Origin: Chitinophagales bacterium | GTDB lineage: Bacteria > Bacteroidota > Bacteroidia > Chitinophagales > UBA10324 | Direction of reading: 5' to 3' | DNA length: 64,000 nt | Assembly: GCA_038326325.1 (NCBI GenBank) | Contig: JBBQJW010000010.1 | Span: 65,187 to 129,186 of the forward strand | Program-made: the position numbers and the translations under genes | Notes under the pieces: generated by a model | What the model was told of the DNA's origin: nothing | The model's input: only the letters and a program-made list of their open reading frames with translations | The model's database searches: none | In this document: positions 11,273 through 30,513 of the stretch, in pieces | Layout: the number at the start of each line of letters is the position of its first letter | Position numbering within the stretch: the first letter of the stretch is position 1

Positions 11273-11398
11273 GTTATTTAGTTATTGTGTTCTTCCGTTT
11301 ATCATTTAATCAAATAAAAATAAATTTTATTTCAGCAATCAGGAATTTTTTGATGAACGGATTGTCCATAAACTGCTTAAATGCAAAGGGAATAACTG

Positions 11399-11821
11399 TT
11401 ACAGTCTGTTAAATTTAGATGCGAAGAAAATCATTAAGAAAACAATACTGAGGTATATCCAGAACATAGTAAATGCTATGTGAACCATTGTTTCAAAGAA
11501 TTTTCCTTTCCAGAGCTGTGTTGAGTACCCGAACAGTTGAATAAAAAAACGGATGTTCCAGAAAACGGCAAGCCCCAGTATTATTCTGTTTCCTAAAACT
11601 GTTCGTATCAATTCAGTTGAAGATGTGAGACAGAGTATTCCCATCAAAAAAACAGTAAGTGCAATAAAAAAGGAATGCACCTTCATCATTTGTCTATTCA
11701 TAATGCTCAAAGAACTCAATTCACTTTTCCATTTAAAGTATCTCGGAAAGATGATATGAATGAGTGCAAGTATGACCAGGAGCCATCCGCATATTTTAAG
11801 ATGTAGTTCCATATTTTTCAA
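11399..11821 (-). CDS. Small 4-TM membrane protein, unknown function
   Basis: 140 aa with four hydrophobic segments. It overlaps the upstream gene by 26 nt, which suggests co-translation. Confidence 0.55.
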   Translation of the reverse strand: MKNMELHLKICGWLLVILALIHIIFPRYFKWKSELSSLSIMNRQMMKVHSFFIALTVFLMGILCLTSSTELIRTVLGNRIILGLAVFWNIRFFIQLFGYSTQLWKGKFFETMVHIAFTMFWIYLSIVFLMIFFASKFNRL

Positions 11822-12560
11822 GTATAAAAGTTTTAATGAAAGATGTTACACTAATCGTTTTAACAATTTTAAAATGAGCAGTTTCAAAAATTTTCTTCCA
11901 CGACGATTCAGAGAAAAAATGAAAAGCACCAATGTTATAAGCAAAAAAATTCGGAAGATTTCTTAAATGTTCAGTCACTATTATTTGACCTTTTTGATTG
12001 AGCATTCGTTCAAGCTCCTTAAAAAAAATAATTCGTTCAGATTCATTTCTGATTTCGTGTGCAGACAGAATTACAAAAATCTTATCGGCATAATTATCAT
12101 CCAATGGAATTGCTGATGTACTTACTTGTATAGTATTGGGAAACGGAGGATATGCCTTTCTCGCACGACTGATAGAAACTTCAGTGTGCTTTAACGGATT
12201 GTAAAAATCAAAAACAATTAATTCAGAGTCCGGGAATTTCTCTTTCAGTAAAATGCTTGTTTCATCAAAACCTGAATTAATATTTACAATTTTGTTATTG
12301 TTCTCATTTAACAATTCGCTTAACCAATTCAATTTATATAATCCGGATAAATCATAAACATAAAATGAAACAAGAAGCGTAATTACAGTTGTCAAAAGAA
12401 TTAAACTTAATAAAATACTGAAATAAATATGGAATGGTTCATTAAAATAATTTTTCAGAAACAAAAGGAAAAAAGCAAGTGTAACAGACAACAAATAAAA
12501 ATGCCAATTAAACCTGATGATATTTCCAACTCCCTGAAAAGGTTTTCTTATGCTTTCCAT
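11796..12560 (-). CDS. Membrane-anchored class I SAM-dependent methyltransferase-like protein
   Basis: Two N-terminal TM helices are followed by a Rossmann-like region (VNINSGFDETS ... LIVFDFYNP ... ADKIFVILSAHEI ... LNQKGQIIVTEH) that fits Methyltransf_11/25 topology. Confidence 0.6.
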   Translation of the reverse strand: MESIRKPFQGVGNIIRFNWHFYLLSVTLAFFLLFLKNYFNEPFHIYFSILLSLILLTTVITLLVSFYVYDLSGLYKLNWLSELLNENNNKIVNINSGFDETSILLKEKFPDSELIVFDFYNPLKHTEVSISRARKAYPPFPNTIQVSTSAIPLDDNYADKIFVILSAHEIRNESERIIFFKELERMLNQKGQIIVTEHLRNLPNFFAYNIGAFHFFSESSWKKIFETAHFKIVKTISVTSFIKTFILEKYGTTS

Positions 12561-13851: not shown

Positions 13852-16209
13852 ATGAAAGCGACATTAATGTTCCTGCACAGGAACGCAAAGTGCTCTTCTT
13901 TTTTTCTTTTTCTGCTGTTCACAAATTCGTTTTTGCTTAAGGCGCAAAATGGGGAGGATGCAGATGACAAAACTCTTTCACCTTACTTTGTCGTACTCAG
14001 CGAGCATCCTGGAACCGACAATCTTCCGCTGAAAGAAACTTCGGCAAGTGTAAATATTGTTGGAGTGATTGCAGATGTAACAGTGAAGCAGGTGTATATC
14101 AATTCAGGATTAAACACACTCGAAGCCATTTATACTTTTCCGCTTTCGACAAGGGCTGCAGTGTATGGGATGCAGATGAAGATCGGCTCGCGCACCGTTA
14201 CAGCAAAAATTGAAGAGAAGAAAAAAGCGCGCGATGATTATGAAAAAGCGAAGACGGAGGGCAAGCGCACTTCACTGCTGGAGCAAAGTCGTCCCAATGT
14301 GTTTACGATGAATGTCGGCAACATTGCAGCGAACGACACCATAACGGTTGAACTGAAATACACCGAACTGCTCATTCCTGAAAAGGGAATTTATTCTTTT
14401 GTTTATCCAACTGTTGTAGGTCCGCGGTATTCGAACAAGTCAAAAGAAACAGCAAGCGCCGACGACAATTTTGTGAGCACTCCTTACACCAAGGAAGGTG
14501 TGATGCCCGCTTACCGGTATGGAATTAATGTTCAGATTCATTCGGGTATACCGGTACAGAATGTGGTTTGCATCACTCATAAAACTGTGGTTGCCTATAC
14601 TGATTTATATAACGCAACTGTGATGATAGACCCTGCCGAAACCAACGGCGGAAACAGGGATGTGATTATTAACTATTCGCTTCAGGGAGATAAAATAGAA
14701 TCGGGTGTGATGCTCTACGAAAACGGAGACGAAAATTTTTTCATGGTGATGATTCAGCCACCGAAAAAAGTGTTGAAAGAAGAAATTCCTCCGAGAGAAT
14801 ATATTTTCATTGTAGATGTGTCGGGTTCAATGCACGGATTTCCGATTGACCTCTCTAAAAAATTATTGCGGAATCTTATTCTTAACCTGAACCCAAACGA
14901 TAAATTTAATGTGCTGCTTTTCTCAGGTGCTACTGCTACCATGAGTCCTTCATCGGTGGATGCGACAATTGAAAATTTCAATAAGGCAGTTGCATTTCTT
15001 GATGCTGAAAGAGGATATGGCGGAACAGAATTGCTTCCGGCAATGCAGGTGGCGTATGCACTTCCGCGCACTGACCCCGACCTCTCGCGGTCGTTTGTGA
15101 TTGTGACAGACGGATATGTTTCCATTGAAAAAGAAACTTTCGATTACATACGCAACAACACTGGCAATACTAATTTTTTCAGCTTCGGAATTGGTAGCTC
15201 AGTGAACCGATACCTGATGGAAGGCATGGCATTCATGGGTGGTGGTGAAGCAATGATTGTGACCAAGCCGGAATTTGCTGATGAACAGGCGGAGAAATTC
15301 AGAAACTACATTAACACGCCTGTACTCACTCAGATAAAAACAGACTTCGGAAATTTTTCTGCTTATGATGTGCAGCCTTCTTCGTCGCCCGACATGCTTG
15401 CGGAGCGCCCGATAATTATTTTCGGAAAGTACACCGGAAGCCCGACAGGAATTATTACTGTAAAAGGTAAAGCAGGAAGAAATACTTACAAGCAATCGTT
15501 CGACCTATCGCAGGTGAAACCGCTTAAAACAAATTCAGCACTCCGTTATTTATGGGCGAGAGAAAAAATTAAATTGCTCGATTATTATGATTCGGATAAC
15601 GGATACAGTAATAGCGGAGATAAATCAGAAGGAGAAATATTAGCACTCGGATTAAAATACAACCTGATGACCAACTACACTTCTTTCATTGCAATTGATG
15701 AAGAAGTTATTCGCGACAAGGATGGAAAATTAGTGACTGTTACACAGGCAAATCCGTTACCTGAAGGTGTATCAGATTATGCAGTTGGGTTTGATATGAC
15801 TGTAAGCGGAAACAGTTTGGGGTCGATAAATGCCAATGGTTCTTCTATCTATAATTATTCTGTAACAACGGAAAATGAAATTACCACCGAGGATTCATCT
15901 TATCTGTTTGCTGAAGCAATGCCAATATTTCCGGGTGGAGAAGATTCACTTGCTGCCTTCATACAAAGAAATATTATATATCCGTCATGTGAAAAAGACA
16001 AAGGTGTTACAGGAGTAGTGTATGTTTCTTTCTTTGTGGAAACTGACGGAAGCATTTCGGATGTGAAACTGATGAAAGGAATAAGTAATGCACTGAATGA
16101 GGAAGCGCTGCGCGTCGTGAAGAAAATGCCAAAGTGGATTCCGGGAACACTGAATGGAAATGCTCAAAGAGTGCAGATGACATTGCCTGTTAAATTCAAG
16201 TTGAAATAG
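13852..16209 (+). CDS. Secreted VIT domain + von Willebrand A domain protein with a C-terminal TonB_C-like domain
   Basis: It has a signal peptide and a VIT-like N-terminus (LPLKETSASVNIVGVIADVTVKQVY...FPLS). The vWA MIDAS motif is FIVDVSGSM. The C-terminus AMPIFPGGEDSLAAFIQRNIIYP...GVVYVSFFVETDGSISDVKLMKG...EEALRVVKKMPKWIPG matches the TonB C-terminal fold pattern. Confidence 0.85.
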   Translation: MKATLMFLHRNAKCSSFFLFLLFTNSFLLKAQNGEDADDKTLSPYFVVLSEHPGTDNLPLKETSASVNIVGVIADVTVKQVYINSGLNTLEAIYTFPLSTRAAVYGMQMKIGSRTVTAKIEEKKKARDDYEKAKTEGKRTSLLEQSRPNVFTMNVGNIAANDTITVELKYTELLIPEKGIYSFVYPTVVGPRYSNKSKETASADDNFVSTPYTKEGVMPAYRYGINVQIHSGIPVQNVVCITHKTVVAYTDLYNATVMIDPAETNGGNRDVIINYSLQGDKIESGVMLYENGDENFFMVMIQPPKKVLKEEIPPREYIFIVDVSGSMHGFPIDLSKKLLRNLILNLNPNDKFNVLLFSGATATMSPSSVDATIENFNKAVAFLDAERGYGGTELLPAMQVAYALPRTDPDLSRSFVIVTDGYVSIEKETFDYIRNNTGNTNFFSFGIGSSVNRYLMEGMAFMGGGEAMIVTKPEFADEQAEKFRNYINTPVLTQIKTDFGNFSAYDVQPSSSPDMLAERPIIIFGKYTGSPTGIITVKGKAGRNTYKQSFDLSQVKPLKTNSALRYLWAREKIKLLDYYDSDNGYSNSGDKSEGEILALGLKYNLMTNYTSFIAIDEEVIRDKDGKLVTVTQANPLPEGVSDYAVGFDMTVSGNSLGSINANGSSIYNYSVTTENEITTEDSSYLFAEAMPIFPGGEDSLAAFIQRNIIYPSCEKDKGVTGVVYVSFFVETDGSISDVKLMKGISNALNEEALRVVKKMPKWIPGTLNGNAQRVQMTLPVKFKLK

Positions 16210-16258: not shown

Positions 16259-17452
16259 ATGGTGAATAGAAAAAAAATCTTCTTCCGGTTTTTTAGTGCG
16301 ATTATTCTCTGTATGATTTTTTGTTCGTGCTGCGAAAACAAAACAAACGAAAAATCTGTTACAGTAATTCCGCTCACTCAAACGGATACCATTGCGCGAA
16401 CGAGCATCACATTTATTCTTGGCAAAGACGACAACACACGAAACCCGTATTACGCACTGGCTAATCAGTATTATCGTCTGAGCGAAACGGAGAAAACAGA
16501 GATAGTGATTGATTCACTCATTTCACTCACCGAGGTTCGCAATTATCTCGCTGTGCACCGTCCGGTAAATAAGCGTCCGTGGGGATTGATAAACTTAGTG
16601 ACACACGGAAACGAATTCGTTGACCTGAGTGTGTATGTTTCGCCTACGGGTTCGCGTGTGTCGGAAGAAAGTTTGCAAAAAGCAATTGACGATTCTGTTT
16701 TTCTGCCACTTGATTCTTTAACGATTGATGATAAAACACTTTTCAATTTACATGGATGTGCAGTTGGGAATAATACACGGTTGCTGAATCTGCTTGGCGT
16801 TGCGTTTGGCGGGGGTCCCACTCCCGCGCTTGTGAAGGCATCACGGATGTTTGAATATTATGCTTACCTCTCGCCGAATAAAAATCCGCAGAGCATAAGG
16901 CATTACTACGCGCGGGTGTGGTACGGATATTACAAAGTTGATTCGCTGCCCGACGAACAGATTTTAACGGCGCAACTGAAAAACAAATATCCAAACGACT
17001 CGGTTGATTGGGTACAAGCACTGCGCAGGCAATATCCTTCAGACCCTTCACAGGTGTATCACATGAACCTGCACATACCAGTGGTATGGGAAGATTTTTA
17101 CGAAAGCAAAAATGAGATGCCTGACCTGCGCACCAAAGCAAAGCAGGACAAATGGGTGGATGATAAAACGGAATTTCTTGCGCTGCTCTCCAAAACGGCA
17201 ATACCCCGCGAATATTTCCGCATTAAATTTTACACTCTCACCTACAGCCGCGACTCCGGTATCATTTATTCCGGTAAGGTAAAAGGTATGGCAGGCATCA
17301 TCTGCATCATAAAACCAGAAGTGAAAGCCGTCGATGTACAGGGCATAAAACACCTCCCTTACATTCCTGCCGATAACGACAATCAGTTTTTCAGTTACTC
17401 CGTTACGAGACAAAATGAAAGTAATGGGTTGATGAGAATTTTACCATTATAA
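16259..17452 (+). CDS. Lipoprotein of unknown function with a THGN...LHGCAVGN motif pair
   Basis: The lipoprotein-like signal MIFCSCC is present. The gene starts 50 nt after the VIT-vWA gene on the same strand and shares its elevated GC. I recognise no family with confidence. Confidence 0.65.
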   Translation: MVNRKKIFFRFFSAIILCMIFCSCCENKTNEKSVTVIPLTQTDTIARTSITFILGKDDNTRNPYYALANQYYRLSETEKTEIVIDSLISLTEVRNYLAVHRPVNKRPWGLINLVTHGNEFVDLSVYVSPTGSRVSEESLQKAIDDSVFLPLDSLTIDDKTLFNLHGCAVGNNTRLLNLLGVAFGGGPTPALVKASRMFEYYAYLSPNKNPQSIRHYYARVWYGYYKVDSLPDEQILTAQLKNKYPNDSVDWVQALRRQYPSDPSQVYHMNLHIPVVWEDFYESKNEMPDLRTKAKQDKWVDDKTEFLALLSKTAIPREYFRIKFYTLTYSRDSGIIYSGKVKGMAGIICIIKPEVKAVDVQGIKHLPYIPADNDNQFFSYSVTRQNESNGLMRILPL

Positions 17453-17607: not shown

Positions 17608-18264
17608 CTAATTCTTCAAAGTTGTAAAAACTCCAAGCGGTTCAGCATATAATGAATTATCCTTACTACTTCCATCACATTTACTTGCAACTGTCCAGAT
17701 ATATTTTGTTTCTGGATTTAGATTAGAGAGCAGGAAATAATTTCCGTTTCCCTCTCCAACACTTACCATTACCCATTTCGGCCTCTCATTCTGAGTTTTA
17801 TAACGAATTATATACTTAGTACTATTCAGTGGTCCTGTCCAGTGTAACAGTACAGAAGTTGAAGTTATACTATCTACCTTAAGGTTAAATGGAGTTTCAC
17901 AGGGAAACTCAGTCGTGAAATTTACTTTAACAGAATATTCTGAAGTGTCTTTAAAATCAATATTGCAATAAGAAAGTATCTGTAATTCATAAGTCGAGTT
18001 CGGAGCAAGGTTAGAAATTTTCGTTATTGAGTCAGAAGGTAAAACACGCATTGAACTCCAAACCGATGTTCCAACTACTCTTGCCCTTAATTTATACCCG
18101 CAAGAACCTTTGACTTTTGACCATGAAATTTTCGCAAAAGAACTACCAGCTTTTACTGCTTTTAAATTTTCAGGAGTCAAACATTTATTTTGGGCCGTTA
18201 CATCACAAACTGAAAAAATCAATGCCACAATCAATGCAATGGATGTATTATAAAATTTAAACAT
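17608..18264 (-). CDS. Secreted protein with two fibronectin type III-like domains
   Basis: It has a signal peptide (ALIFSVCDVTAQ). The FN3 pattern occurs twice: P.NL......S..A.ISW......Y.L..R... L.P.T.Y...I. Confidence 0.7.
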   Translation of the reverse strand: MFKFYNTSIALIVALIFSVCDVTAQNKCLTPENLKAVKAGSSFAKISWSKVKGSCGYKLRARVVGTSVWSSMRVLPSDSITKISNLAPNSTYELQILSYCNIDFKDTSEYSVKVNFTTEFPCETPFNLKVDSITSTSVLLHWTGPLNSTKYIIRYKTQNERPKWVMVSVGEGNGNYFLLSNLNPETKYIWTVASKCDGSSKDNSLYAEPLGVFTTLKN

Positions 18265-18268
18265 TTTT

Positions 18269-18967
18269 CTATTTTAAAGTTTTGAATTTAATATAAGGAG
18301 CAAAGAGGGGCGAAATTCCTCTTTCAGCACTGCCACAAATTGATTTTAAGGAAAGCACATATTCAGTATCAGGTTTCAGGTTTATTAATATATAGGCGGG
18401 TTGATATGTAGCATCAACTGTAACACTTAACCAATTTTTTATTTTTTGTTCATTAGGAGCATAAAACAATTTGAATTTTTTTGAATCGAGAGTTGAAGAC
18501 CATTCAATTGCAGCTGAAGAACTATCAATATTAGTTACCATTATTTTATTAGGAAGTTCGCAACCACAGCTAGTGATTAGCGTATCAGCCAGAGAAAAAT
18601 CAGAGGTATCATCAATATGACCGCTGCACATTATTCCCATTTGAACAATGTAAACAGAAACTGATTTCATCTTTGGAATCTGCATCACAGTATCAGGCGC
18701 ATTGACCATAAAATAATTCCAAACAGAGTCATGAGGAGATTTTATTCTTGCACGATAAGCAAACGCCCCGGGAATTGAATTCCACTTTGTATTAATTGTT
18801 TTACCCGTGATACTTACAACAGAAAAATTTTTAAGCCCATTACATTTAGATTGAGAATAAGAATTCTGATAAAAAAAAATCAATAACAAAAAAATAATCG
18901 AGCCTATAAAAGAATATCTGGCTTCAGATAAATTTCGTATCAGATTAGCATTTACTTTGTTTTCCAT
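18269..18967 (-). CDS. Membrane-anchored or secreted protein with two fibronectin type III-like domains
   Basis: It has an N-terminal hydrophobic anchor and two FN3-like modules (NFSVVSITGKTINTKWNS..GAFAYRARIK; NKIMVTNIDSSSAAIEWSS). Its ATG overlaps the stop of the upstream giant gene by 1 nt (ATGA-type junction at 18967). Confidence 0.7.
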   Translation of the reverse strand: MENKVNANLIRNLSEARYSFIGSIIFLLLIFFYQNSYSQSKCNGLKNFSVVSITGKTINTKWNSIPGAFAYRARIKSPHDSVWNYFMVNAPDTVMQIPKMKSVSVYIVQMGIMCSGHIDDTSDFSLADTLITSCGCELPNKIMVTNIDSSSAAIEWSSTLDSKKFKLFYAPNEQKIKNWLSVTVDATYQPAYILINLKPDTEYVLSLKSICGSAERGISPLFAPYIKFKTLK

Positions 18968-21900
18968 TAATGAGCTACTACAATTTTTTTAGTGTAAGTA
19001 TTATTTTCCCCTTTGATTTCTAAAATGTAACAGCCACTTGCAAGATTCGCTGAGTTAATTATTTCGTTTGTAGTTCCTGTTTTAAGAAGGATAATTTTTG
19101 ATTGCATTACCTGTCCTAATTCATTTAATAAAACAAGGCGAACATTTGAACTTATCGAATAATTTGAAAAAGAAACATTAATTAAATCATCAGCCGGATT
19201 TGGAGCAATTACAATTCGAAACTCATTAGCAGTTAAATCTTCCGCACCTGTAAAGTTAAATTCAATAGACTGCGAGCTGCAACCGAAACTATCTGTAACA
19301 GCCACCGAATAATTTCCATAGTTAAGAATGATAATCTGCTGATAAATTGCTCCATTGATAATATTACCATTCAGATACCATTGATAGGACGAGTATAAAG
19401 TTGTAGAAAGAATATTTCCGCTTAGTGAAATCGCGGGGGTAACAGGCAAGGCATTTACAGTTACGAGATTATTCATTACGAGTGTATCACTGCCTGTAGC
19501 ATTTGAACTTATAAGTGTTACATCAAAAGCACCTGCCTGATTATAACATACATTTGGGTTCTGAGAATTAGTATTTCCAATTGAAGTTCCTGGCAATATC
19601 CAATGCCATGAAGTTGGTTGGTTGGTTGAAATATCGGTAAGTGAAATACAATCTCCTTCACAAATATTATTGTCGCTTAGGTTTAATGCAGCAAATGGTT
19701 TTGCTGTGAATGAATAATTAAAAGGTGTAGTATTTGAACACCCCCCTCCGCTCTCAACAAATACTTTATAGTTTCCTGATGTGTTTGCTATATAAAAATA
19801 ATTTGTCGCACCTGAAATTGCTGATCCATTTAGCAACCATTGATACTGTAACAGTCCCGAAGTTGTAAATAATGTATCGTCATGTTGTGTAATAATCGCT
19901 GTTGGTATTGAACTCGTATTAACCAATTGCATAAGCATTAATGTATCATAACCGTAAAAATTCCCTGTTATTAGTTGAACATTATATAACCCTGACTGAT
20001 TAAAACAAACTGTTGGGTTTGCCTGAATGGATATTGCCGGACTTCCCCCCTGAAAACTCCAGTTCCAATAATTTGGTTGATTGCTTGAGTTATCAGAGAA
20101 AGTAATGCATTCACCAACGCATATTTGGGTTGCAGAATAAGAGAATGATGTAACAGGAATAAAACTCTGAGAACTATAATAAAGTGGAATTGCAATTGAT
20201 GAACAACCTGAATTATTAAAAACTTCAACAGTATAAAATCCGGCTTGAGTTGCCTGATAGTTTTGATTAATAGCTCCGAAAATTGCGACTCCATTGAAAT
20301 ACCATTGATACGAAACCGCTGAGCTTAAACAACTTAAAAGATTACCAGAAATTGAAAACGAAGGTATTGGCGGTGTCGCATTAACAGTGATGTTTATTGT
20401 TTGTGAAAAATAATTACCACAAGGTGACTGAGTATAACAGAAATAACTTCCCCCGCCGCTCACAACATCTTGGTTATTAGTTGCCCCTGAAATCTGAATT
20501 CCGTCATGATACCATTGATAATTAAATGCGGGATTACCAGCAACAGACAAAACAGTTGATTCACCTTCACAAAAAATACTGTCGCCCGATAATGTAACAG
20601 TTGAAACAGGTACTGAAATAACATGCAATTGCAATCCATTTGAAGTTAAAGACCCGCAATAATTCTGAGCCTGACATTGATAAACCCCCTGCACCTGAGC
20701 AGAATAAGTTGAGTTCGTAGCACCACTGATATTTATTCCATTAAACATCCATTGGTATGAAGTAACATTGATTCCATTTGAAATTAACAACGAAGAAGTA
20801 TTGGAACAAATGGTATCGTTACCCGAAAATGAAATTGAAATTGAAGGTTGAGCAGAGCCTGCTGAAAGAACTAATGCATTAGTAGTATCACTTAGGCAGT
20901 TTGATTGAATAATGCAACTGTAAGTTCCCTGCTGCTGTGTGCTGTAAACAGAGTTGGTTGCGCCGGAAATAACTACATTTCCTGAAAGCCATTGAAACAA
21001 AAACCCTGAACCACTTGGTGCAATTAAATCAACTGTTACACCTGGGCATAACACATTTCCCTGAGAAGAAGTAATGACCAATGATGATAGTTGAAACACA
21101 TTAACACTTATCACAGTTGAATTGAATGTTCCACAAGAAATGCTACTGAACTCACATGAATAAACTCCGGTTGTTGTTGCGTAATAAAAATTATGGGTGC
21201 CACCTGAAATGTTACTTCCATTCAGTTTCCATTGATAAGACAATTGATTATTTGCTGTCGCAAAAAGATAAACCGAATCACCCGGACAAAGGTTACTTCC
21301 ATTCGGAGCATAAATAATATTTGTGAGATTGAAAGAACTAAGAATTAAATTATTTGAAAATATTGTTCCGCACTGGTTAGAAAACCGACAAGAATAAACT
21401 CCGGATATACTAGTCTGATAAGTATTTCCTGTTGCTCCATTAACAGGGTTTCCATTACGATACCATAAATAATTTATTCCTGATATGAAGAGCGCATTAA
21501 ATGTAACAGTTTGACCTGGACAAATATTCAAGCTGTCGTTCGTTTCAATTGAATCAGGCAATGATGGTGCAACAGAAATATTTAATGCGTTTGATAAATT
21601 TGAATTACAGAAATTACTTACAAGACAGGTATATGATCCCTGTTGCGTCGCTATAAATGATAGTCCTGTAGAATCCAAAACATCAATACCATTAAACCTC
21701 CATTGATACTGATAATCAATTCCGGGACTTGCCGTCAAAAGAGCGGATTGCCCCGAACAAAGTGATGTTAAACCGGTAGTACCAATTGAGGCAACAACAG
21801 GATTATTCAAATGAACAGAAATTATATTTGAATAAGTAGACCCGCAAGCATGATTGATTCGTAAAGTATAATTACCACTTTGATTTGTAGTATAATTATT

Positions 21901-24471
21901 TAAAGTTGCTCCGCTGATTGTTACACCATCTCTATACCATTGAAAAATTAATGTTCCGTTCCCATAGTTTACATAACTACTGTTAAAAATCACATTCGAA
22001 CCCGAACAACCTTGAATCATACTTGAAGTTGAAATATAAACAGATGGAACTCCTAATGGATTCAGGTAAGCATAATTAGATGTTACATAATTCCCGCATT
22101 GATTATAAACTCTTACATAATAAGTTCCGGTTTGATTTACATTAAGTGTATCCTGATTTGCATTAGGTATTATGTAATTATTGTAATACCATTCATAATA
22201 AATATTTACAGGATGATTTGTTAAAGCGAGATGGGCCGAAGAACCGTTACACATGTATGTTAGACTGGAAACCAAAGTTCCTGCACTTGTAATTGTTGGT
22301 ATAATAGAAGTAATGTGAATGGTATCAGAATAAACATCCCAGCCACAACCACTAACCGCCCTAACATAATAATCGCCAACTGTTGTTGCGGTAAATACTC
22401 CACTTGCCGATGTACTACTTGAAGTGAGAATTCCGTTTTTATAAAAGTAAACAAACACTCCACCTGAAAGCGATACACAATTAAAAACCTCATAACTAAA
22501 ATGAATAGGGTTGCATCCTGATGTTGAAGTATTAAAAAGTGAAATGTGAGCGAGCGATTGGTTATTTACATTGACTGCTTTGGTTCCAAACGCACAATTA
22601 GATCCTGAGTGCGCTGTATAAATATAAGTTGCATTGCTGCTGGGAACTGAAGTAATGACATTCTGATTTTGCGTGATAACACTAGCTTCAGGATACCAGA
22701 TATAATTCTGATAAAACTGATATGCTGTAACAGTAATAGTATCTCCTGCGCATATAACAGATGGTCCCGCGATTGAACCTGAAAAAGAAGAACAATAATT
22801 TAGCTGGTTCTCACTCCTTATCATTATGTTTTTATCGGAGAAATTCAGGTTTAAAAAGTAACTACCGGAACCTGAAGTTGGATTATTTAATGAAGAAGTT
22901 ACTGTAACAGTATTCAAATTAAGGTTTCCATAACCCTCAAAATAATAATTCGCATTTACGGTTTTGGGATAACCAAGTTTTACTTCCGAGGCAGAGGGTG
23001 ACAACCCTTGTCCGCTAAAATTCAAAATAAGATTGAGCGGATGATAGGTCGAATAAATAGTTGGAAGAATTAAAGTATCCGATGGTGTCACAGTCAGATG
23101 AGGAACATTTATTTTCTGAAGAAAAACCGAACCGCCATTTAGACCATTAGAATAGATAGTACTCGAATGAAAATAAGTACTGTCAGGCATTTTAACATCT
23201 GATCCACAAAATCCACCAATCAAAAAACTGTTATTGCCATTATTTAAAACCCTAAAACATCTTTCAGTATTCGAAGCTAAGGCTGCTGAATACTTTCCAA
23301 TTGACAATGCATTTAAGTTTTGATCTAGCAAAATAAAATAGCCATTACACTGTATATTGCTTAGCGAAAATGGAATAGAGGAATCTAAAGGAATCTGGGC
23401 ACCAGGCCTGGCCCTTCCACAAACAACAGGATTATTATTTATTAAATCAATATCAATGGTATTCCCTGAATTAATGGTTGTAGCTAATTTTAAATAAACA
23501 CCATTAGAATCAAATTCAGCAATGAATCCACTTCTGTAGTTGTTAAAATTTAGTGTTGAAACATTTGGGTCAATGAAAAATGTGTAATTCCCAGACCTTC
23601 CCACTACAAAAATATTTCCTGATGAATCGATTGCAAGACTTCTCATTTCATCATAGGCTGTGCTTCCTGCAGTTTTAACCCAACTAACATTCATTGAAGC
23701 ATTAAGCTTCATTAAAAAGCAATCCTGATATCCATGGGCTATTAATGAAAAAGTCGAAATTAAAAATGAAGCAGAATACTCGCCACATACAAAAATGTTT
23801 CCGTTGTTATCCGTTTTAATTTTTGATGCATTATCCAATCCAATTCCGCCATATCGGCTTCCACTTACCCAGATTCCAGCAGTATCCAATTTCAAAATAC
23901 AAATATCTGTTGCACCTGCTGAGGTTAAATTATTTCCATAATAGTTAAATGTGTTACTGAATCCTCCGGCAAGAAATAAACTATTATTTCGGATATCAGC
24001 CGAGTAAATAAATGATTCGTCAGATGAGGAAACTTTTATCCATTTAAAATTTCCATTACTGTTATACTTCGCTATAAAAAATTTTCTTGCATGAGAAATC
24101 ACAGTCGTGAACATCTGTGCTCCTACTTTCATTGTATCATAAAAATTTCCAACAACATAAATATTGCTTGCATCATCAATCAAAATACTTCGCGGGGTTA
24201 TTTCTTCGCCTTTAATATTATTCATCCTCCATATCTCAATTCCCGAAGAATTCATTTTGGTTAAAAACATTCCCTTATTCCGAATGGTATCGCCAGAAGC
24301 AGCAATAGCATTTTTTCCAATGCGACCTGCGGTGTAAATAAATCCATTGTTGTCACGCTCAATGCACGAACAGAACCCACTTTCGCTTTCATACATGTGT
24401 AACAGTTGAGTCAACTGGGCATGTGCTACTGTCTGAAAGAAGAAAAGAAAAAGTATTAAATATTTTTTCAC
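18967..24471 (-). CDS. Giant (1834 aa) T9SS-secreted adhesin-like protein: N-terminal beta-propeller-like repeats, at least 11 Ig-like modules, 2 PKD domains, and a type-A T9SS C-terminal sorting domain
   Basis: It has a signal peptide. The module C.G..v.L......YQW..NG..I.GAT...Y....G.Y.C recurs many times. PKD signatures are W.W.F.GG.P and NP.V.Y...G.Y.V.LI. The C-terminus IAPNPADDLINVSF...LASGCYILEIKGEN...KKIVV fits the Por_Secre_tail pattern. A GTG start directly follows the TAG stop of the upstream gene. Confidence 0.9.
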   Translation of the reverse strand: MKKYLILFLFFFQTVAHAQLTQLLHMYESESGFCSCIERDNNGFIYTAGRIGKNAIAASGDTIRNKGMFLTKMNSSGIEIWRMNNIKGEEITPRSILIDDASNIYVVGNFYDTMKVGAQMFTTVISHARKFFIAKYNSNGNFKWIKVSSSDESFIYSADIRNNSLFLAGGFSNTFNYYGNNLTSAGATDICILKLDTAGIWVSGSRYGGIGLDNASKIKTDNNGNIFVCGEYSASFLISTFSLIAHGYQDCFLMKLNASMNVSWVKTAGSTAYDEMRSLAIDSSGNIFVVGRSGNYTFFIDPNVSTLNFNNYRSGFIAEFDSNGVYLKLATTINSGNTIDIDLINNNPVVCGRARPGAQIPLDSSIPFSLSNIQCNGYFILLDQNLNALSIGKYSAALASNTERCFRVLNNGNNSFLIGGFCGSDVKMPDSTYFHSSTIYSNGLNGGSVFLQKINVPHLTVTPSDTLILPTIYSTYHPLNLILNFSGQGLSPSASEVKLGYPKTVNANYYFEGYGNLNLNTVTVTSSLNNPTSGSGSYFLNLNFSDKNIMIRSENQLNYCSSFSGSIAGPSVICAGDTITVTAYQFYQNYIWYPEASVITQNQNVITSVPSSNATYIYTAHSGSNCAFGTKAVNVNNQSLAHISLFNTSTSGCNPIHFSYEVFNCVSLSGGVFVYFYKNGILTSSSTSASGVFTATTVGDYYVRAVSGCGWDVYSDTIHITSIIPTITSAGTLVSSLTYMCNGSSAHLALTNHPVNIYYEWYYNNYIIPNANQDTLNVNQTGTYYVRVYNQCGNYVTSNYAYLNPLGVPSVYISTSSMIQGCSGSNVIFNSSYVNYGNGTLIFQWYRDGVTISGATLNNYTTNQSGNYTLRINHACGSTYSNIISVHLNNPVVASIGTTGLTSLCSGQSALLTASPGIDYQYQWRFNGIDVLDSTGLSFIATQQGSYTCLVSNFCNSNLSNALNISVAPSLPDSIETNDSLNICPGQTVTFNALFISGINYLWYRNGNPVNGATGNTYQTSISGVYSCRFSNQCGTIFSNNLILSSFNLTNIIYAPNGSNLCPGDSVYLFATANNQLSYQWKLNGSNISGGTHNFYYATTTGVYSCEFSSISCGTFNSTVISVNVFQLSSLVITSSQGNVLCPGVTVDLIAPSGSGFLFQWLSGNVVISGATNSVYSTQQQGTYSCIIQSNCLSDTTNALVLSAGSAQPSISISFSGNDTICSNTSSLLISNGINVTSYQWMFNGINISGATNSTYSAQVQGVYQCQAQNYCGSLTSNGLQLHVISVPVSTVTLSGDSIFCEGESTVLSVAGNPAFNYQWYHDGIQISGATNNQDVVSGGGSYFCYTQSPCGNYFSQTINITVNATPPIPSFSISGNLLSCLSSAVSYQWYFNGVAIFGAINQNYQATQAGFYTVEVFNNSGCSSIAIPLYYSSQSFIPVTSFSYSATQICVGECITFSDNSSNQPNYWNWSFQGGSPAISIQANPTVCFNQSGLYNVQLITGNFYGYDTLMLMQLVNTSSIPTAIITQHDDTLFTTSGLLQYQWLLNGSAISGATNYFYIANTSGNYKVFVESGGGCSNTTPFNYSFTAKPFAALNLSDNNICEGDCISLTDISTNQPTSWHWILPGTSIGNTNSQNPNVCYNQAGAFDVTLISSNATGSDTLVMNNLVTVNALPVTPAISLSGNILSTTLYSSYQWYLNGNIINGAIYQQIIILNYGNYSVAVTDSFGCSSQSIEFNFTGAEDLTANEFRIVIAPNPADDLINVSFSNYSISSNVRLVLLNELGQVMQSKIILLKTGTTNEIINSANLASGCYILEIKGENNTYTKKIVVAH
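19251..22791 (-). repeat. Array of at least 11 Ig-like modules plus 2 PKD modules inside the 1834-aa CDS (approximate bounds)
   Basis: The (Y/F)QW..NG..ISGAT...Y...G.Y.C motif recurs roughly every 75-80 aa in the translation. Boundaries were estimated from amino-acid positions ~560-1740. Confidence 0.55.
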
Positions 24472-27400
24472 CTATTTGGGATTTACAATTAACTGATGAA
24501 ACAGCTGATTATCTATCGTATAAATTTCAACTACCACACAATCCGCGTTGTAATCTATTAAAGGAATGCTGCAACTTGTTTTCCCTTCAGGAATAATCTC
24601 ATCAAGCTTCTGTCCAATTGTATTGAATAGCAAAAGATGGTCTACCAAACCACATCCATCAATAATCAACTTATCATTTCTGATAAAGATTTTAATTTGA
24701 ACGGGATCAATTTTTTCTTCTCCTGTAATTATATATGGAACAGAGGTTCCACGACAACCATCTGATGAAATTACTACCACAGTATAATCACCATTTCCCA
24801 CTGGCGTTAAGGTATAAGTTCCCGCAGAAGCAATAAAAATTCCATTCAGATACCATTCAAAAGTATAGCCCGAACCATTTGGATAATTGCAAACCAAATT
24901 GCCACCTGAATATGAAATTATCGGAGCTGGATTCGCTAACACCTGAACAAAAGAATTAAAAACTGTTGTTCCGGTGCCTGAGAAATTACTTACCGAAAGT
25001 GAAACACTATAAATTCCAACATTAGGAAAACAAATTCCCGTTGGGTTTTGAAGGATTGAGGAAGGAGTTGTTGCTCCTGTAAAACTCCATTGCCAGCTAT
25101 AGGGTAAATTTGATGACTGATCAAAAAAATCAATGCAATCGTTCTGACAAATTATAGTATCAGAAGAAGCTATATGAGGAACAGGTATATCAAAAAATTT
25201 ATACGATAATAAATTGAACGCATTGCACCCTGTCTGATAATTAGCGTTAACATTATAAATACCTGATGAATCCGGTACAAAATAATTATTCGTTGCCCCT
25301 GAAATTGACCCAGAACCTCCATACCATTGGTAAGCAATAATTCCAGTACCCAACGCAAAGAGCGTATCACCAGATTGAGTAATAGTTGGAGGTGTCGCTA
25401 TTAAAACATGAATCATTTGCGGAAAATAAAAAGTATCGGAACCAAATACATTACTCGCAATTAAAGTCACATCAAAATCTCCTGGTTGAGTAAAACAAAT
25501 AATCGGATTTTGTTGTGTCGTTGTACCAGGATTACCACCACCAATTGTCCAAAACCACGAAGTGGGGAAATTGACTGAAAGATCAGTAAAGTTTATACAT
25601 GTTCCTGCACAAATATTTGAGTCAGATGACATAAGATTTATTTGTGGAGGACTATTAACTGTAACAGAAATATCATTGCTGATTCCTGTACACCCACTAC
25701 TATTTGACACAACAACATTGTAAACACCTCCGCTCGTAGGAACATAAGTAGAATTATTTCCACCGATAATTGTACTTCCATTCTCATGCCACTGATAAGT
25801 AAAAGGTCCACCTCCATTAGTAACTGTAGAAGTTATTGTGCCACCTGTTAAGGAAATCGTAACAACGGGAGATGGATTAACAATAACAAAATTATTTTGA
25901 TAAAGAGTATCACTTCCACTTAAGTTAGAAGTAATTAATTCCACCGAAAATGTATCAGTAGAATAATAGCATATTATGGGATTACTCAGAGTACTTGAAG
26001 AAGGAGTTCCCCCTGGAAAATACCACTGAATTGATGTCGGCGAATTGGAAGATGTACTACTAAAATATAAACAATTGTTTACACAGATATTCGGATTTCC
26101 CGAAATGAAAGAAGATAAAGGAGCAGGAGAGTATGCATAAGGAGCAAGGCTTGTGTTATGGCAACCAAATGAAGTATAAACTGTTACATTATAATTTCCC
26201 GATACAGTCGGAACATAAAAGCTATTTGTTGCTCCGGCAATTGCACTTCCATTTAAATCCCATTGATATGTATAAGAACCAACCGGAGCAAATAAAGTAT
26301 CGTTCTGATAAGTAATGTTTGCGGGCGGTATTCCAAAAACGGTAATGTATCCTGAGACTGTTACAGTATCGGAGCCAAATGAGTTGTGAGAAATAAGTGT
26401 TACATCATAAACGCCAGGAATCAAATAGCAAATAAAAGGGTTTTGTAATGTTGAACTGGATGGAACTCCCCCAGGAAAAGACCATTCCCATGATGTCGGA
26501 TTATTCAGCGTTTGATCACTATAGGTTATACAAAATGCCTGACAAATCTTAATTTGATTCGAAGTAAACAAAGCTGTAGGCAGAGTATTAATTGTAAAAA
26601 TCAATGAGGGACTCGTAGCCGAACAGCCGTTAACTCCGATTATCTCAACAGAATAATATCCGTTTTGAGTAGCTGTATAACTCTGGTTATTAGCTCCTCC
26701 GATTTGCACACCATTCAAATACCATTGATAATAAGTTGCTGTAACAGATGATGTAAGCACAGTTCCGTTCTGAACAATGACAGGTGTAACAGGTTGAGGC
26801 ATTACTGTTACACATGAAGTACAGTTAAAGGTATCAGCTCCGAATTGATTTGAAACGATCATTTGAACATCAAAAGTTCCTGAGCTATCAAAACAAATTG
26901 TAGGAGAAGAGGATGTTGATGAAGCCGGATTCCCACCATTGAAGGTCCATTGAAAAGTGTTTGGGGTATTTGTTGATGAGTTTACAAATGGAATACATTC
27001 ACCTTCGCAAATAGTATTATTTCCCAATATAAACGAAGCAACAGGGCTTGCCATAACCACAATATTTGAAAAAGCTGCACAACCAATGTACGATGTTACC
27101 ATCACCAGGTAGTTTCCAGGCTGAGTTGGAACATAACTTTGATTTGTTGCACCTGCAATCGGATTATTATTAATATACCACTGGTAAGAAGCTCCAACTG
27201 TATTACAAATCAAAGTATCGTTCTGATTTATAATTATTGGACTCAGATTCAACACATGTATATATCCAGGATAATATAGCGTGTCATAACCATATATGTT
27301 ATGAACTATGAGTGTTACATCAAATGTTCCGGCATTCGGATAACAAATATTTGACGGAGAAACCAGTGATGAGGTTGGAGGAGAACCGCCTTGAAAAATC

Positions 27401-29349
27401 CATTCATATGTTGTTGGGGTGTTAAAGGTTGCTGCTGAAAACTGAATACAATTATTCGGACACAAATAATTCATATTCGCGTTCATAGATTGAATATAAG
27501 GAGGTAAATTATTTACTGTATAGGTAATCGTAATCGGGCAAACACTTCCAGGGTTTACTATTACAGAATAAACTCCATCAATTAATGGTACCCATGTTGA
27601 ATCTGTGGCTCCTGAGATGGCAACGCCTGATAAATACCATTGAAACGCGACCGATGTAACACCTGTGTTACACACTAAAACTCCGCCTGAATATGACAGA
27701 ACGGGATTGACATTTTGCAACACATGAATGTAGTTTGGAAGATAAAGTGTATCAGCTCCCAAAGAATTACTAGCAATAACCTGAACATCAAAATATCCTG
27801 ATGTGTTATAACATACCTGAGGATTATAACCAATCGCAGTTGAAGGATTACCTCCAGGAAAACTCCATTGCACTGTTCCAACAGGATATAACGATCCTGT
27901 ATAAGCAAAATTAGCACAGGTTCCAACGCAAACATTTTGATTTACAACAGATAAGTTTGCTTCTGGTGGAGCTGCCGCTGCAAGGCAAATCATAAAATAA
28001 TCATTGCTGCCTTGTGTGTTTTGTGTTTTATCACCGCCAATTCCTGCTGTGGATGAGTTGCCCATTATGAATGATCCGTTTGATAATTCACAAACCAGGC
28101 TAACCTCAGCATGAGAATTTTCCAAAACAGTTCTATCCCAGATAATATTCTGTAGTGTATCAAGACGGAGCACCCAAGTACTTTCGTATCCTAAATTATT
28201 TTGAGTTTTGTCAAAACTTGCATTTGAATAAGAAGTGCATGATATCAAAATATTATTTTCATTATCTATGAACATATCTGACAGATCATCATCCAATGCA
28301 TTCCCCCCGATTTCTTTTTGATAAACCTGATTTCCGTTTTGATCCAATAAAATAAACCAATAATCAGATCCACCTCCTCCGGGATATTGAGCTGTGGTTT
28401 TATTACCACCTACATCAGATTTAGACAAACTGCAAACGGCGATATGTTGCCCGACAGATTTGACTGCAACAATGTTTTTAAAATTATAATCGAATACAAA
28501 CTGAATACCTTCCACTCCTGTGCCTCCAAATCTTTTTTGCCATATAATATTTCCTGTTTCGCTAATTTTAACAACCAAATAATCAAGATTGCCATACGAA
28601 GCAGAAGTAATATTTCCTGATATTCCACTGAGTACAGCTGCACCGATAACTAAGTTTCCATCAGGCAATAAATCAATATATCGTCCATAATCTTCACCTG
28701 ATCCTCCAATAGCATAATCACCTAAAAGGTTTCCCGAAGTATCCGTTTTTACAATCCATATATCATCGTTTCCAAAAGAAGGGGTAGTTTTATTTCCATT
28801 CGCCGTTGAATTACTTGACCCAACAAAAAAAATATGATGTTGCAAACTTTCAATTGCCTTCATCACATAATCATTAGAGGTTCCTCCAAAATCTTTATCC
28901 CATATTTTTATACCATTCTGATCTATTTCAACAATCCATAAATCAGTATTTCCAAAAGTATTTTGTGTTTTATCTCCGGAAGCAGGAGAGGTTGAATGAC
29001 CTGATAAAATCACTTTCCCATTATCCAACAAAATCATATCGAACATGTAATCGTTCGAACTGCCTCCAAAAGTTTTGTCCCATATTTTATTTCCACTGGG
29101 ATCAATCTTCACTACCCAATAATCAAATCCCCCCTTAGAGTTTTGAGTTTTATCACCTCCAATATTTGAACTACTACTTCCTCCTGCAAGAAAATTACCA
29201 TCCGGCAACGGAAGCAAACATGTTTGATAATCATAGCTAAGGCCTCCAAATCTTTTATCCCAGATTTTTGGCGGGGCTAAACTTTGCCCGAGCAAATCAG
29301 CCGAAACAAATAGCAAAGTAACCAAAAGTGTTACACTTAATGTTTTCAT
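24472..29349 (-). CDS. Giant (1625 aa) T9SS-secreted adhesin-like protein: about 7 SBBP/beta-propeller-like repeats, 7 tandem PKD + Ig-like units, and a divergent T9SS C-terminal domain
   Basis: It has a signal peptide. The N-terminal repeats read W(D/Q)K.FGG...D...... DG...GDKT....G..D.W..K.D..GN. Seven copies of W.(F/W).F.GG.P..S (PKD) are each followed by YQWY.NG..I.GAT...Y (Ig-like). The last ~80 aa are beta-rich, as in T9SS CTDs. Confidence 0.9.
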   Translation of the reverse strand: MKTLSVTLLVTLLFVSADLLGQSLAPPKIWDKRFGGLSYDYQTCLLPLPDGNFLAGGSSSSNIGGDKTQNSKGGFDYWVVKIDPSGNKIWDKTFGGSSNDYMFDMILLDNGKVILSGHSTSPASGDKTQNTFGNTDLWIVEIDQNGIKIWDKDFGGTSNDYVMKAIESLQHHIFFVGSSNSTANGNKTTPSFGNDDIWIVKTDTSGNLLGDYAIGGSGEDYGRYIDLLPDGNLVIGAAVLSGISGNITSASYGNLDYLVVKISETGNIIWQKRFGGTGVEGIQFVFDYNFKNIVAVKSVGQHIAVCSLSKSDVGGNKTTAQYPGGGGSDYWFILLDQNGNQVYQKEIGGNALDDDLSDMFIDNENNILISCTSYSNASFDKTQNNLGYESTWVLRLDTLQNIIWDRTVLENSHAEVSLVCELSNGSFIMGNSSTAGIGGDKTQNTQGSNDYFMICLAAAAPPEANLSVVNQNVCVGTCANFAYTGSLYPVGTVQWSFPGGNPSTAIGYNPQVCYNTSGYFDVQVIASNSLGADTLYLPNYIHVLQNVNPVLSYSGGVLVCNTGVTSVAFQWYLSGVAISGATDSTWVPLIDGVYSVIVNPGSVCPITITYTVNNLPPYIQSMNANMNYLCPNNCIQFSAATFNTPTTYEWIFQGGSPPTSSLVSPSNICYPNAGTFDVTLIVHNIYGYDTLYYPGYIHVLNLSPIIINQNDTLICNTVGASYQWYINNNPIAGATNQSYVPTQPGNYLVMVTSYIGCAAFSNIVVMASPVASFILGNNTICEGECIPFVNSSTNTPNTFQWTFNGGNPASSTSSSPTICFDSSGTFDVQMIVSNQFGADTFNCTSCVTVMPQPVTPVIVQNGTVLTSSVTATYYQWYLNGVQIGGANNQSYTATQNGYYSVEIIGVNGCSATSPSLIFTINTLPTALFTSNQIKICQAFCITYSDQTLNNPTSWEWSFPGGVPSSSTLQNPFICYLIPGVYDVTLISHNSFGSDTVTVSGYITVFGIPPANITYQNDTLFAPVGSYTYQWDLNGSAIAGATNSFYVPTVSGNYNVTVYTSFGCHNTSLAPYAYSPAPLSSFISGNPNICVNNCLYFSSTSSNSPTSIQWYFPGGTPSSSTLSNPIICYYSTDTFSVELITSNLSGSDTLYQNNFVIVNPSPVVTISLTGGTITSTVTNGGGPFTYQWHENGSTIIGGNNSTYVPTSGGVYNVVVSNSSGCTGISNDISVTVNSPPQINLMSSDSNICAGTCINFTDLSVNFPTSWFWTIGGGNPGTTTQQNPIICFTQPGDFDVTLIASNVFGSDTFYFPQMIHVLIATPPTITQSGDTLFALGTGIIAYQWYGGSGSISGATNNYFVPDSSGIYNVNANYQTGCNAFNLLSYKFFDIPVPHIASSDTIICQNDCIDFFDQSSNLPYSWQWSFTGATTPSSILQNPTGICFPNVGIYSVSLSVSNFSGTGTTVFNSFVQVLANPAPIISYSGGNLVCNYPNGSGYTFEWYLNGIFIASAGTYTLTPVGNGDYTVVVISSDGCRGTSVPYIITGEEKIDPVQIKIFIRNDKLIIDGCGLVDHLLLFNTIGQKLDEIIPEGKTSCSIPLIDYNADCVVVEIYTIDNQLFHQLIVNPK
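24669..27954 (-). repeat. Seven tandem ~155-aa PKD-like + Ig-like di-domain units inside the 1625-aa CDS (approximate bounds)
   Basis: I counted the recurring protein motifs (7x W.F.GG.P and 7x YQWY.NG) in the translated ORF. Boundaries were estimated from amino-acid positions ~465-1560. Confidence 0.6.
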
Positions 29350-29451
29350 ACAGAAACATTTTTCCGAAAGTTAATGAATATGTTTATCAAATTAGAACCT
29401 GTTTAAAATTAAATCCAATTTCTTTGTTTAACTTGTATCTACAATTGCTGA

Positions 29452-29690
29452 ATTTGGAATGCTTTTGCCATAATCAAAGTTTATGCATACAACTGTGTTA
29501 GTCAGCGAGTGGCTGACGCGATTCTTCAATTGCAGAAAAAATATCTGAGTGACCCTAAAGAAAAATTTTCAATTTTGTTTTCACACAACGATCTTGCTGA
29601 TATGGTCGGGACTGTTTTAAAAGTAGTATTTTAAAAATCACAGAAGTTCTTTGCAACGGGAAAACGCCATTCAAAATTCACAAATGAAAA
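29452..29690 (+). pseudogene. Remnant of a Crp/Fnr-family regulator (C-terminal HTH part only, disrupted)
   Basis: Translation from 29452 gives ...VSQRVADAILQLQKKYLSDPKEKFSILFSHNDLADMVGTVLKVVF*. This fits the Crp C-terminal pattern (..R.A..LL.L........ L.(L/F)S..DLA...GT.RE.V.R) up to a premature stop. A shifted frame continues SSILKITEVLCNGKTPFKIHK. No cNMP-binding N-terminal half is present upstream. Confidence 0.45.
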
Positions 29691-29975
29691 TCAATATGAT
29701 GGTTATCAATTTGGGGACATCTTCCATTTTAATTTTCACGAAAATTTGAACATTGTCAATTTTTAATTAAAGGTCACTTATCAATTTTATATCTTCAAAA
29801 AGGTTCGATAAATTGCCCATCACCCCGACAAAAATCCGAAACAAGTTTTGATTCGAATTTTTTATTTCATGACTTCATGTTAAATATTACAATCGCTGTC
29901 AAGTTGCTTCATTCATATATCTTTTTACTTTAGTGCTGTTTTAATTTTAAAACTCCAAAAACAAAAATTAAAAAC

Positions 29976-30389
29976 ATGAAAAAAAATTTAATTGGAGGTG
30001 TCGCCGACTTGGTTGTCTTCTTCTTACTTGAATGATTGCTTTATGGCTTATTATTTAAATACTTAATGGCTACTTATAGCGGAACCGTAAATTGTGTAGA
30101 AAAATCAGATGACGAAATGAGTCTTGGCGCTTTATTTATTAGAAAATATTATTAGGATTTTTACTCTCTATAATATTTAGTTGGTCAAAACAATGATGGT
30201 CTAATTTCTGAAAATTTTATAGGGGCTGTTGTTGGAATTTTAACTTGGGGACAGATTTAATTATGCACGGAACTTCAAACCTCATTAGTTTGAATGGAGC
30301 TATTTTTGATATTGGAATTTGACCCTTGCATTTTACACTTGGAGGAGGTGTAACTGATTGTGTTATTGGAATGATTAAAGAATAATTAA
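29976..30389 (+). pseudogene. Decayed small hydrophobic-protein gene with multiple in-frame stops and at least one probable frameshift
   Basis: One frame reads MKKNLIGGVADLVVFFLLE*LLYGLLFKYLMATYSGT...GAVVGILTWGQI*... with 7 internal stops (3 TGA, 1 TAG, 3 TAA). The 3' end reads better in another frame (TLGGGVTDCVIGMIKE*). Confidence 0.45.
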
Positions 30390-30513
30390 AACTTCTTTAA
30401 ATTTTTTTAAAAGAGTCTGATGAAATTCATCGAACTTTTTTATTTTAAAAAAACTTATTTGAATAATATTACAATTATTCTTTCAAAGTACATCAATTTT
30501 ATATTTACCAGCA

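Follow-up and report, generated by a model that had tools for sequence, protein, structure and literature searches.

Two small double-FN3 proteins as candidate partners of two giant surface proteins in an operon-like gene cluster of Chitinophagales

To our knowledge, type IX secretion system (T9SS) substrates that carry a C-terminal domain (CTD) of type A are thought to need only that domain and the general machinery, and the only cargo-specific helpers we know of are those of type B substrates, which belong to the PorP/SprF family; we know of no CTD-less partner genes in the described type A pathway. The arrangement analysed here lies in a stretch of 64,000 nucleotides from a Chitinophagales bacterium (contig JBBQJW010000010.1, positions 65,187 to 129,186), hereafter called the window, in which two genes for giant proteins, G1 and G2, are followed on the minus strand by genes for two small proteins, F1 and F2, each made of two fibronectin type III (FN3) modules. 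A comparable combination of large and small genes has been described for the sprCDBF operon of Flavobacterium johnsoniae where, according to Rhodes et al. (2011, PMC3021240; cited through PMC12635249), the gene of a giant adhesin exported by the T9SS shares a transcript with smaller genes that the adhesin requires to be exported or to function.

By their open reading frame (ORF) coordinates, the four minus-strand genes of the window were located at 24472-29349 (G1, 1625 aa), 18967-24471 (G2, 1834 aa, with a GTG start), 18269-18967 (F1, 232 aa) and 17608-18264 (F2, 218 aa), exactly matching an earlier sequence-based note (the original prediction) that had described four minus-strand genes with almost no intergenic DNA. 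The same four proteins, with identical ends, were present in public gene calls (an NCBI contig of 130 kb and a Logan assembly), and no names for them were found in public records. Because their synteny with the giants is kept and no cryptic CTD was found in them, F1 and F2 appear to be functionally linked to G1 and G2 in a dedicated manner, a link that had been predicted and that the data below support; their specific role, for which accessory, anchoring or chaperone functions had been proposed, is a matter of inference. We tentatively read F1 and F2 as dedicated binding partners of the giants, which would escort their specific cargo or serve as subunits in its assembly, either ahead of T9SS export or in the course of it, and give this reading a probability of roughly 0.4; such a periplasmic escort or assembly role would be the most parsimonious account of the observations.

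Co-inheritance and evolutionary rate of the four genes

Homologues were searched for among ~5.8 billion protein clusters, 185,579 species genomes and the JGI metagenomes. Each F query retrieved only 3-4 proteins from the clusters, itself included, the scan of the species genomes returned one F locus, and the closest match in the JGI metagenomes was a 25%-identical FN3 array within a 1789-aa protein. No further copies of F1 or F2 were found in the window or in the fetched loci. The homologues of both proteins were confined to the cluster under study, which was present in five lineages besides that of the window, and were always encoded directly downstream of G2 or of S, a protein of 798-799 aa that is a paralogue of the first ~720 residues of G2 joined to a type A CTD. 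The gene order was G1-G2-S-F1-F2 in L001 and in L005/L006, and G1-G2-F1-F2 in L004 and in L008, a metagenome-assembled genome named 'Chitinophagaceae bacterium' (CANJII010000011.1). Thus, the order G1-G2-(S)-F1-F2 held on 5/5 contigs that were long enough (L001, L004, L005, L006 and L008), and the F1-F2 pair was seen on the short contigs L002 and L007. The synteny check therefore showed that every F1/F2 homologue found adjoins orthologous giants wherever the length of the contig permits; small FN3 genes away from such giants, which the original prediction had named as refuting it, did not turn up in these searches.

This order was kept in at least three genomic contexts, the cluster being convergent with a GT2 gene in L001, L002 and L005/L006, adjacent to a MoxR-like gene in L004/L008, and adjoining an unannotated 397-aa gene and a VIT/VWA/TonB_C gene in the window. 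The block has thus been preserved as a unit while its surroundings were rearranged and S was gained or lost. In the window, the GT2 orthologue (73-90% identical) is located at 56478-57506, 39 kb from the cluster; as the orthologues of the whole GT2 block lie at 52-57.5 kb, the cluster or its neighbourhood must have moved ~39 kb in the lineage of the window. In the sister lineages, the GT2 gene is found at 10651-11679 (L001), 1201-1494 (L002) and 11324-11893 (L005), and in L001 it is followed by GWxTD, a WbqC-like gene and a CHU_C cargo gene, whose orthologues are those at 52-57.5 kb of the window. The S gene is inserted between G2 and F1 in two sister lineages and is cleanly absent from the window, L004 and L008; S and S-like genes were located at 6889-9285 in L001, 7602-10001 in L005 and 2642-5023 in L010.

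The selective constraint on the four genes was assayed through the ratio of nonsynonymous to synonymous substitution rates (dN/dS). Between L004 and L008 (dS ~0.33-0.42), the values were practically the same for the giants (0.141 for G1, 0.150 for G2) and for the small genes (0.141 for F1, 0.142 for F2), compared to 0.058 for the MoxR-like flanking gene. Between the window and L001, dN was 0.32-0.37 for the genes of the cluster, about three times that of the flanking genes (0.09 for GT2 and 0.13 for GWxTD), and protein identity was 47-60% in the cluster and 67-86% in the flanks. It follows that F1 and F2 are genuine genes under constraint, with a raised rate in common with the giants. This equal constraint, together with the shared elevated rate and the strict co-occurrence, is the main evidence for a shared function. 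Taken as a whole, the cluster is best explained as an operon for surface proteins that evolves fast and is specific to one lineage, a small freshwater, uncultured, Chitinophagaceae-like clade.

The same data bear on the possibility that the small ORFs are decaying fragments or annotation artefacts, as could be thought of short ORFs at the tail of an operon that are built of a common repeat module only. This was effectively refuted, as both ORFs are intact in 6/6 lineages, with their length, signal peptide, four cysteines and core Trp/Tyr residues kept, their dN/dS is 0.14 and their structural models are confident.

The junctions between the genes are also conserved in kind. G2 and F1 overlap by 1 nt (18965-18969, minus strand), so that the 1-nt overlap predicted at 18967 was found, although its description as ATGA-type was not right, the sequence being TAATG; TAATG or TGATG overlaps recur in L001, L005 and L008 at the G2/S, S/F1 or G2/F1 boundary. 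At the G1/G2 junction (24469-24474, minus strand), the TAG stop of G1 directly abuts the GTG start of G2 at 24471, with 0 nt between them as had been predicted, and the orthologues show a 3-nt gap (L001, L004, L008) or a 44-nt gap (L005). The F1/F2 junction (18262-18271, minus strand) reads TAG aaaa ATG, which is the 4-nt gap expected from the original prediction, and in the orthologues a 5-nt gap or a 4-nt overlap is found. Both the G1/G2 and the F1/F2 junctions lie within 0-5 nt in the orthologous clusters, with the exception of L005 (44-nt gap, 4-nt overlap). This tight packing of the four genes is beyond chance, as it recurs in orthologous clusters of other lineages, and by its sequence the four-gene unit is packed like an operon. 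A reading of G1 and G2 as a single read-through gene was rejected, given that G2 has its own signal peptide and that the 44-nt gap of L005 is out of frame.

Architecture and sorting signals of the four proteins

F1 (18269-18967) begins with a long signal sequence (SYS↓Q, ~aa 38) followed by FN3 modules at ~aa 42-133 and ~aa 136-232, and F2 (17608-18264) with a signal peptide at aa 1-24 (VTA↓Q) followed by FN3 modules at aa 28-119 and aa 122-218. The two proteins are paralogues (27% identical, E 8e-27). Both exceeded the 25-bit cut-off of Pfam fn3 (PF00041), F2 with 63.1 bits and F1 with 29, and their AlphaFold2 (AF2) models (pLDDT 82-83) showed two seven-strand sandwiches per protein. The best 50 Foldseek matches of each model were all tandem FN3-type structures, essentially all of them from animal proteins. 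Four cysteines are invariant across the F1 and F2 families (28, 100, 122 and 196 in F2), so placed that every module has one where it begins and another in its F/G region, and each module probably contains one disulfide. A signal sequence with a small-x-small site followed by Gln is kept in all F1/F2 orthologues, in keeping with the +1-Gln pattern of Bacteroidota signal peptidase I substrates. A reading of F2 as a lipoprotein was rejected because the Cys of its 'FSVC' motif is not conserved, varying in orthologues in which the A/S↓Q cleavage site is kept.

A search with the F profile matched 21,882 proteins with Cys-bracketed FN3 modules of the pattern C..P..L...W....Y.v.yR...W....L..L.p.T.Y...v...C....S.(F/Y)S....F.T, and Por_Secre_tail was present in 6/8 of the examples examined. 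The best 150 of the 21,882 matches, ranked by summed score, were mostly giant FN3 arrays, and with such arrays dominating a summed-score ranking, other small CTD-less double-FN3 proteins could not be listed.

Several points weigh against a dedicated role of F1 and F2. The Cys-bracketed FN3 module is generic in thousands of T9SS FN3-array proteins, where it is usually a mere spacer. The lineages with three CTD proteins carry just two F genes, an S-like protein (P0157, 46% identical to the N-terminal 560 aa of G2) is encoded alone beside miaB with no FN3 genes, and hundreds of proteins elsewhere that combine a CTD with SBBP, the propeller family of the G2 N-terminus, have no FN3 partners. The clade is narrow, so that shared ancestry accounts for part of the conserved synteny. 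Finally, the literature searches turned up no earlier case in which a type A T9SS substrate has a soluble helper specific to it. The generic nature of the modules, the narrowness of the clade and the paralogues that manage without F genes all fit a rival explanation, in which F1 and F2 are independent periplasmic or envelope proteins, for example leftovers of an FN3-array gene that retained their own function, tied to the giants by co-transcription and inheritance alone and without a direct part in how the giants are made or work. Against it stand the strict co-occurrence throughout the lineages, whose clusters differ in S and lie in at least three contexts, the conservation of the stop-start overlaps, and an elevated dN and a dN/dS of the F genes that match those of the giants, and we consider it somewhat doubtful.

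In a second rival explanation, F1 and F2 would themselves be independent cargo of the T9SS, or of another system, with an unrecognized signal, such as a C-terminal FN3 in the role of an atypical CTD. Like FN3 domains, CTDs have the fold of a seven-stranded beta-sandwich (PMC10994853), and G1 shows how far a CTD can diverge within this same operon. Nevertheless, neither small protein matched PF18962, PF13585, TIGR04183 or TIGR04131. A cryptic CTD, which the original prediction had named beforehand as speaking against a dedicated role, was also looked for with profiles and was not detectable, as neither CTD profile showed any similarity to F1 or F2 (hmmsearch E>=2; hhalign 0.1% probability, with 97% and 85% for the positive controls). 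The C-terminal domain of the F proteins scores as a bona fide fn3 and aligns to the N-terminal FN3 at 97% probability (hhalign), and no CTD was among the 50 best Foldseek matches, all of them tandem FN3. Independent export of the small proteins thus seems very unlikely. The description of the small proteins as two FN3 modules each without a T9SS CTD, part of the original prediction, was borne out by Pfam fn3, the AF2 models and the profile searches alike.

Both giants were found to have the signal peptide, the N-terminal propeller-like repeats and the PKD/Ig arrays that had been predicted for them. G1 (24472-29349, minus strand) consists of a signal peptide (aa 1-21, LLG↓Q), a propeller (~aa 23-460), an array of seven PKD + Ig-like 'YQWY' units with a period of ~153 aa (~aa 462-1540) and a CTD-like domain (~aa 1545-1625, nt 24475-24717). 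G2 (18967-24471, minus strand) has a signal peptide (aa 1-18, AHA↓Q), an N-terminal region containing an SBBP propeller (~aa 19-720), about nine Ig-like modules (~aa 735-1435), two PKD + Ig units (~aa 1437-1745) and a CTD (aa 1757-1834, nt 18970-19203), and its Pfam matches include SBBP, Ig_2, PKD_4 and Por_Secre_tail. The arrays of both proteins are paralogous (~28-35% identity). The N-termini matched the solved seven-bladed beta-propeller of CylK (PDB 7fh6, 7ron) with E 1e-22 for G1 and E 2e-20 for G2, and G2 also scored over the cut-off of Pfam SBBP (PF06739; 49.6 bits vs 20.5), a family with no Pfam match in G1. CylK is a cyanobacterial alkylating enzyme, and the likeness of G1 and G2 to it concerns the propeller scaffold only.

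Of L001, L004, L005 and L008, it was L005 that came nearest to the window in the last 460 aa of G1 (60% identity), with L001 far off (47%), and G2, F1 and F2 were all closest to L001. This discordance could be a consequence of recombination or shuffling among repeat units, or of misaligned repeats.

The signal sequences of the giants read MKTLSVTLLVTLLFVSADLLG↓Q in G1 and MKKYLILFLFFFQTVAHA↓Q in G2, with the +1 Gln kept in orthologues, as assigned by sequence without a dedicated predictor. All four proteins have an N-terminal hydrophobic signal sequence with a small-x-small site (LLG in G1) and Gln at +1, and all four are thus predicted to carry export signals for Sec and type I signal peptidase (SPI).

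The sorting domains of the giants differ in how well they fit the curated models. The C-terminus of G2 scored over the cut-offs of Por_Secre_tail (PF18962; 39.6 bits vs 27, E 6.5e-10, aa 1757-1832) and of TIGR04183 (38.5 bits vs 23), and contains both the conserved Lys, K95 in the alignment, and a PNPA motif. By these sequence features, G2 qualifies as a member of the type A cargo class with a canonical type A sorting domain. The C-terminus of G1 did not match the Pfam and NCBIfam CTD models (PF18962, TIGR04183) at E<0.1, and only one of its five orthologues reached E 0.054. When the alignment of the five G1 orthologues was compared with the G2/S CTD profile, hhalign gave 84.7% probability (E 6.7e-6), and a hidden Markov model of the G1 domain matched almost exclusively the extreme C-termini of Por_Secre_tail proteins. 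The G1 domain lacks the PNP motif and has His-Gln in 5/5 orthologues where G2 and S have the Lys. In type A CTDs, this Lys is almost invariant and functionally important, and in F. johnsoniae structures it contacts PorV (Lauber et al., 2024; PMC10994853). Since G1 fails the curated models, matches at the profile level and has lost both the PNP motif and the Lys, its C-terminal domain is probably a divergent relative of the T9SS CTD, of uncertain competence. Therefore, the earlier claim that both giants end in a T9SS-type CTD stands for G2 with both models, and for G1 has to be restricted to a divergent relative that remains under the model cut-offs.

The combination of giant and small genes was also considered as a polymorphic toxin with its immunity protein and rejected, since the giants end in CTDs instead of toxin domains and F1 and F2 have signal peptides.

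Upstream region and neighbouring genes

The region 5' of G1 (29350-30513, minus strand) is non-coding over ~1.16 kb, presumably contains the promoter and leader of the operon, and is bounded upstream by a divergent TPR/PMT_2 gene that starts at 30514. No ORF of at least 60 aa was found in it, and no Rfam families were detected in the window between 16 and 32 kb. The Bacteroidota TAnnTTTG motif was absent from these 1.16 kb and from the 400 nt upstream of F1 and of F2. A sigma-70 promoter scan performed no better than shuffled sequences (58 sites vs 63.5 expected), and neither did a terminator scan (8 vs 8.1 expected). Within the same region, on the plus strand (29480-29730), there is a remnant of a Crp/Fnr-type regulator which keeps only the C-terminal helix-turn-helix part (HTH_Crp_2, E 1e-4, under the cut-off) and contains an in-frame stop (…SQRVADAILQLQKKYLSDPKEKFSILFSHNDLADMVGTVLKVVF*KSQKFFATGK…), as a pseudogene fragment.

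Downstream, the operon is convergent with a plus-strand gene that ends at 17452. The convergent genes encode a 785-aa protein with VIT, VWA and TonB_C domains (13852-16209) and a 397-aa protein (16259-17452) for which no Pfam or NCBIfam match was found.

Two more T9SS cargo genes, both with type B CTDs (CHU_C / TIGR04131), were found on the minus strand of the window at 38654-41407 and 52224-54209, which indicates that the organism uses a T9SS. No PorP/SprF-like gene was recognized beside either of them, the gene downstream of the first being riboflavin synthase, and no T9SS machinery genes were found within the 64-kb window.

Possible role of F1 and F2 and comparison with known systems

The above results are compatible with the following scheme. 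G1 and G2 would each consist of a propeller 'head' on a long PKD/Ig 'stalk' and be passed to the T9SS through the C-terminal beta-sandwich domain, which is well founded for G2 and only probable for G1. The message of the giants would also yield F1 and F2, with termination-reinitiation where stop and start codons overlap or abut as the probable mechanism, a coupling that would keep the ratios of F1 and F2 to the giants roughly fixed. Both would be exported by Sec, each folding into two FN3 modules with a probable disulfide bracket, and, having no CTD, should by themselves stay in the periplasm according to established T9SS biology. Export through the T9SS requires a CTD: in T9SS export assays of F. 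johnsoniae, a fusion of a signal sequence to mCherry without a CTD has served as the control construct (PMC10994853). In the periplasm, F1 and F2 would bind the giants as dedicated partners, and they may remain bound after export. A role as escorts could be most relevant to G1, whose CTD has lost the PorV-contacting Lys.

In a variant of this scheme, F1 and F2 would be surface-exposed co-subunits that, once folded in the periplasm and bound to a giant, hitchhike with it out of the cell through the SprA translocon. The small proteins evolve as fast as the surface giants, their type of FN3 otherwise occurs in extracellular T9SS cargo, and their production is probably coupled to that of the giants, all of which would suit hitchhiking; no precedent for it in a T9SS was found in the literature, however, and we regard this variant as unlikely. 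We give the same low odds to the idea that, with F1 and F2, soluble partners dedicated to particular type A substrates of the T9SS would be seen for the first time, be it as periplasmic escorts or as hitchhikers. In the literature, no description was found of SBBP-type T9SS cargo or of CTD-less FN3 partners, and the original prediction likewise knew of no description of the arrangement.

Fusions of SBBP and FN3 domains (P0160, P0178 and P0193) were considered as 'Rosetta-stone' support for a link between the giants and the small proteins. Because their FN3 domains are of a different kind, without the Cys bracket, and they have no CTD, they are weak evidence and were discarded.

Should F1 and F2 prove to be partners that the giants require, the T9SS would gain a further kind of helper or, alternatively, its first cargo that hitchhikes, and it would be explained how a CTD without the conserved Lys could function. 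If they are not partners, the locus would represent one more fast-evolving, lineage-restricted surface-protein operon in uncultured freshwater Bacteroidota.

Compared to known systems, F1 and F2 share with the FN3-array T9SS cargo (for example P0036, P0025 and P0040) the same Cys-bracketed module, but those proteins have 5-40 modules and a CTD, whereas F1 and F2 have exactly two modules and no CTD. The PapD-like chaperones of chaperone-usher pili, whose genes adjoin those of adhesins, have a Sec signal peptide and, in their mature form of ~200 aa, two beta-sandwich domains. F1 and F2 resemble them in size, two-domain shape, Sec signal and adhesin neighbours, by analogy and not by membership, which was rejected in the absence of any Pfam PapD_N or PapD_C match and of any chaperone among the best 50 Foldseek matches per model. 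With respect to sprCDBF, the likeness lies in operon logic only and is likewise an analogy. There, the CTD of SprB is of type B and its partner SprF a PorP-like protein of the outer membrane, whereas the giants here are of type A, and F1 and F2, as soluble proteins of two FN3 modules in tandem, show no similarity to SprC, SprD or SprF. A role for F1 and F2 as carriers of the PorP/SprF type was therefore rejected, as they are soluble FN3 proteins and the adjacent cargo is of type A, not of type B. With respect to type A cargo, such as the RemA-type adhesins of F. johnsoniae, G1 is homologous at the profile level but lacks the PNP motif and the Lys, whereas G2 likewise has a large passenger of many domains between a Sec signal peptide and a type A CTD.

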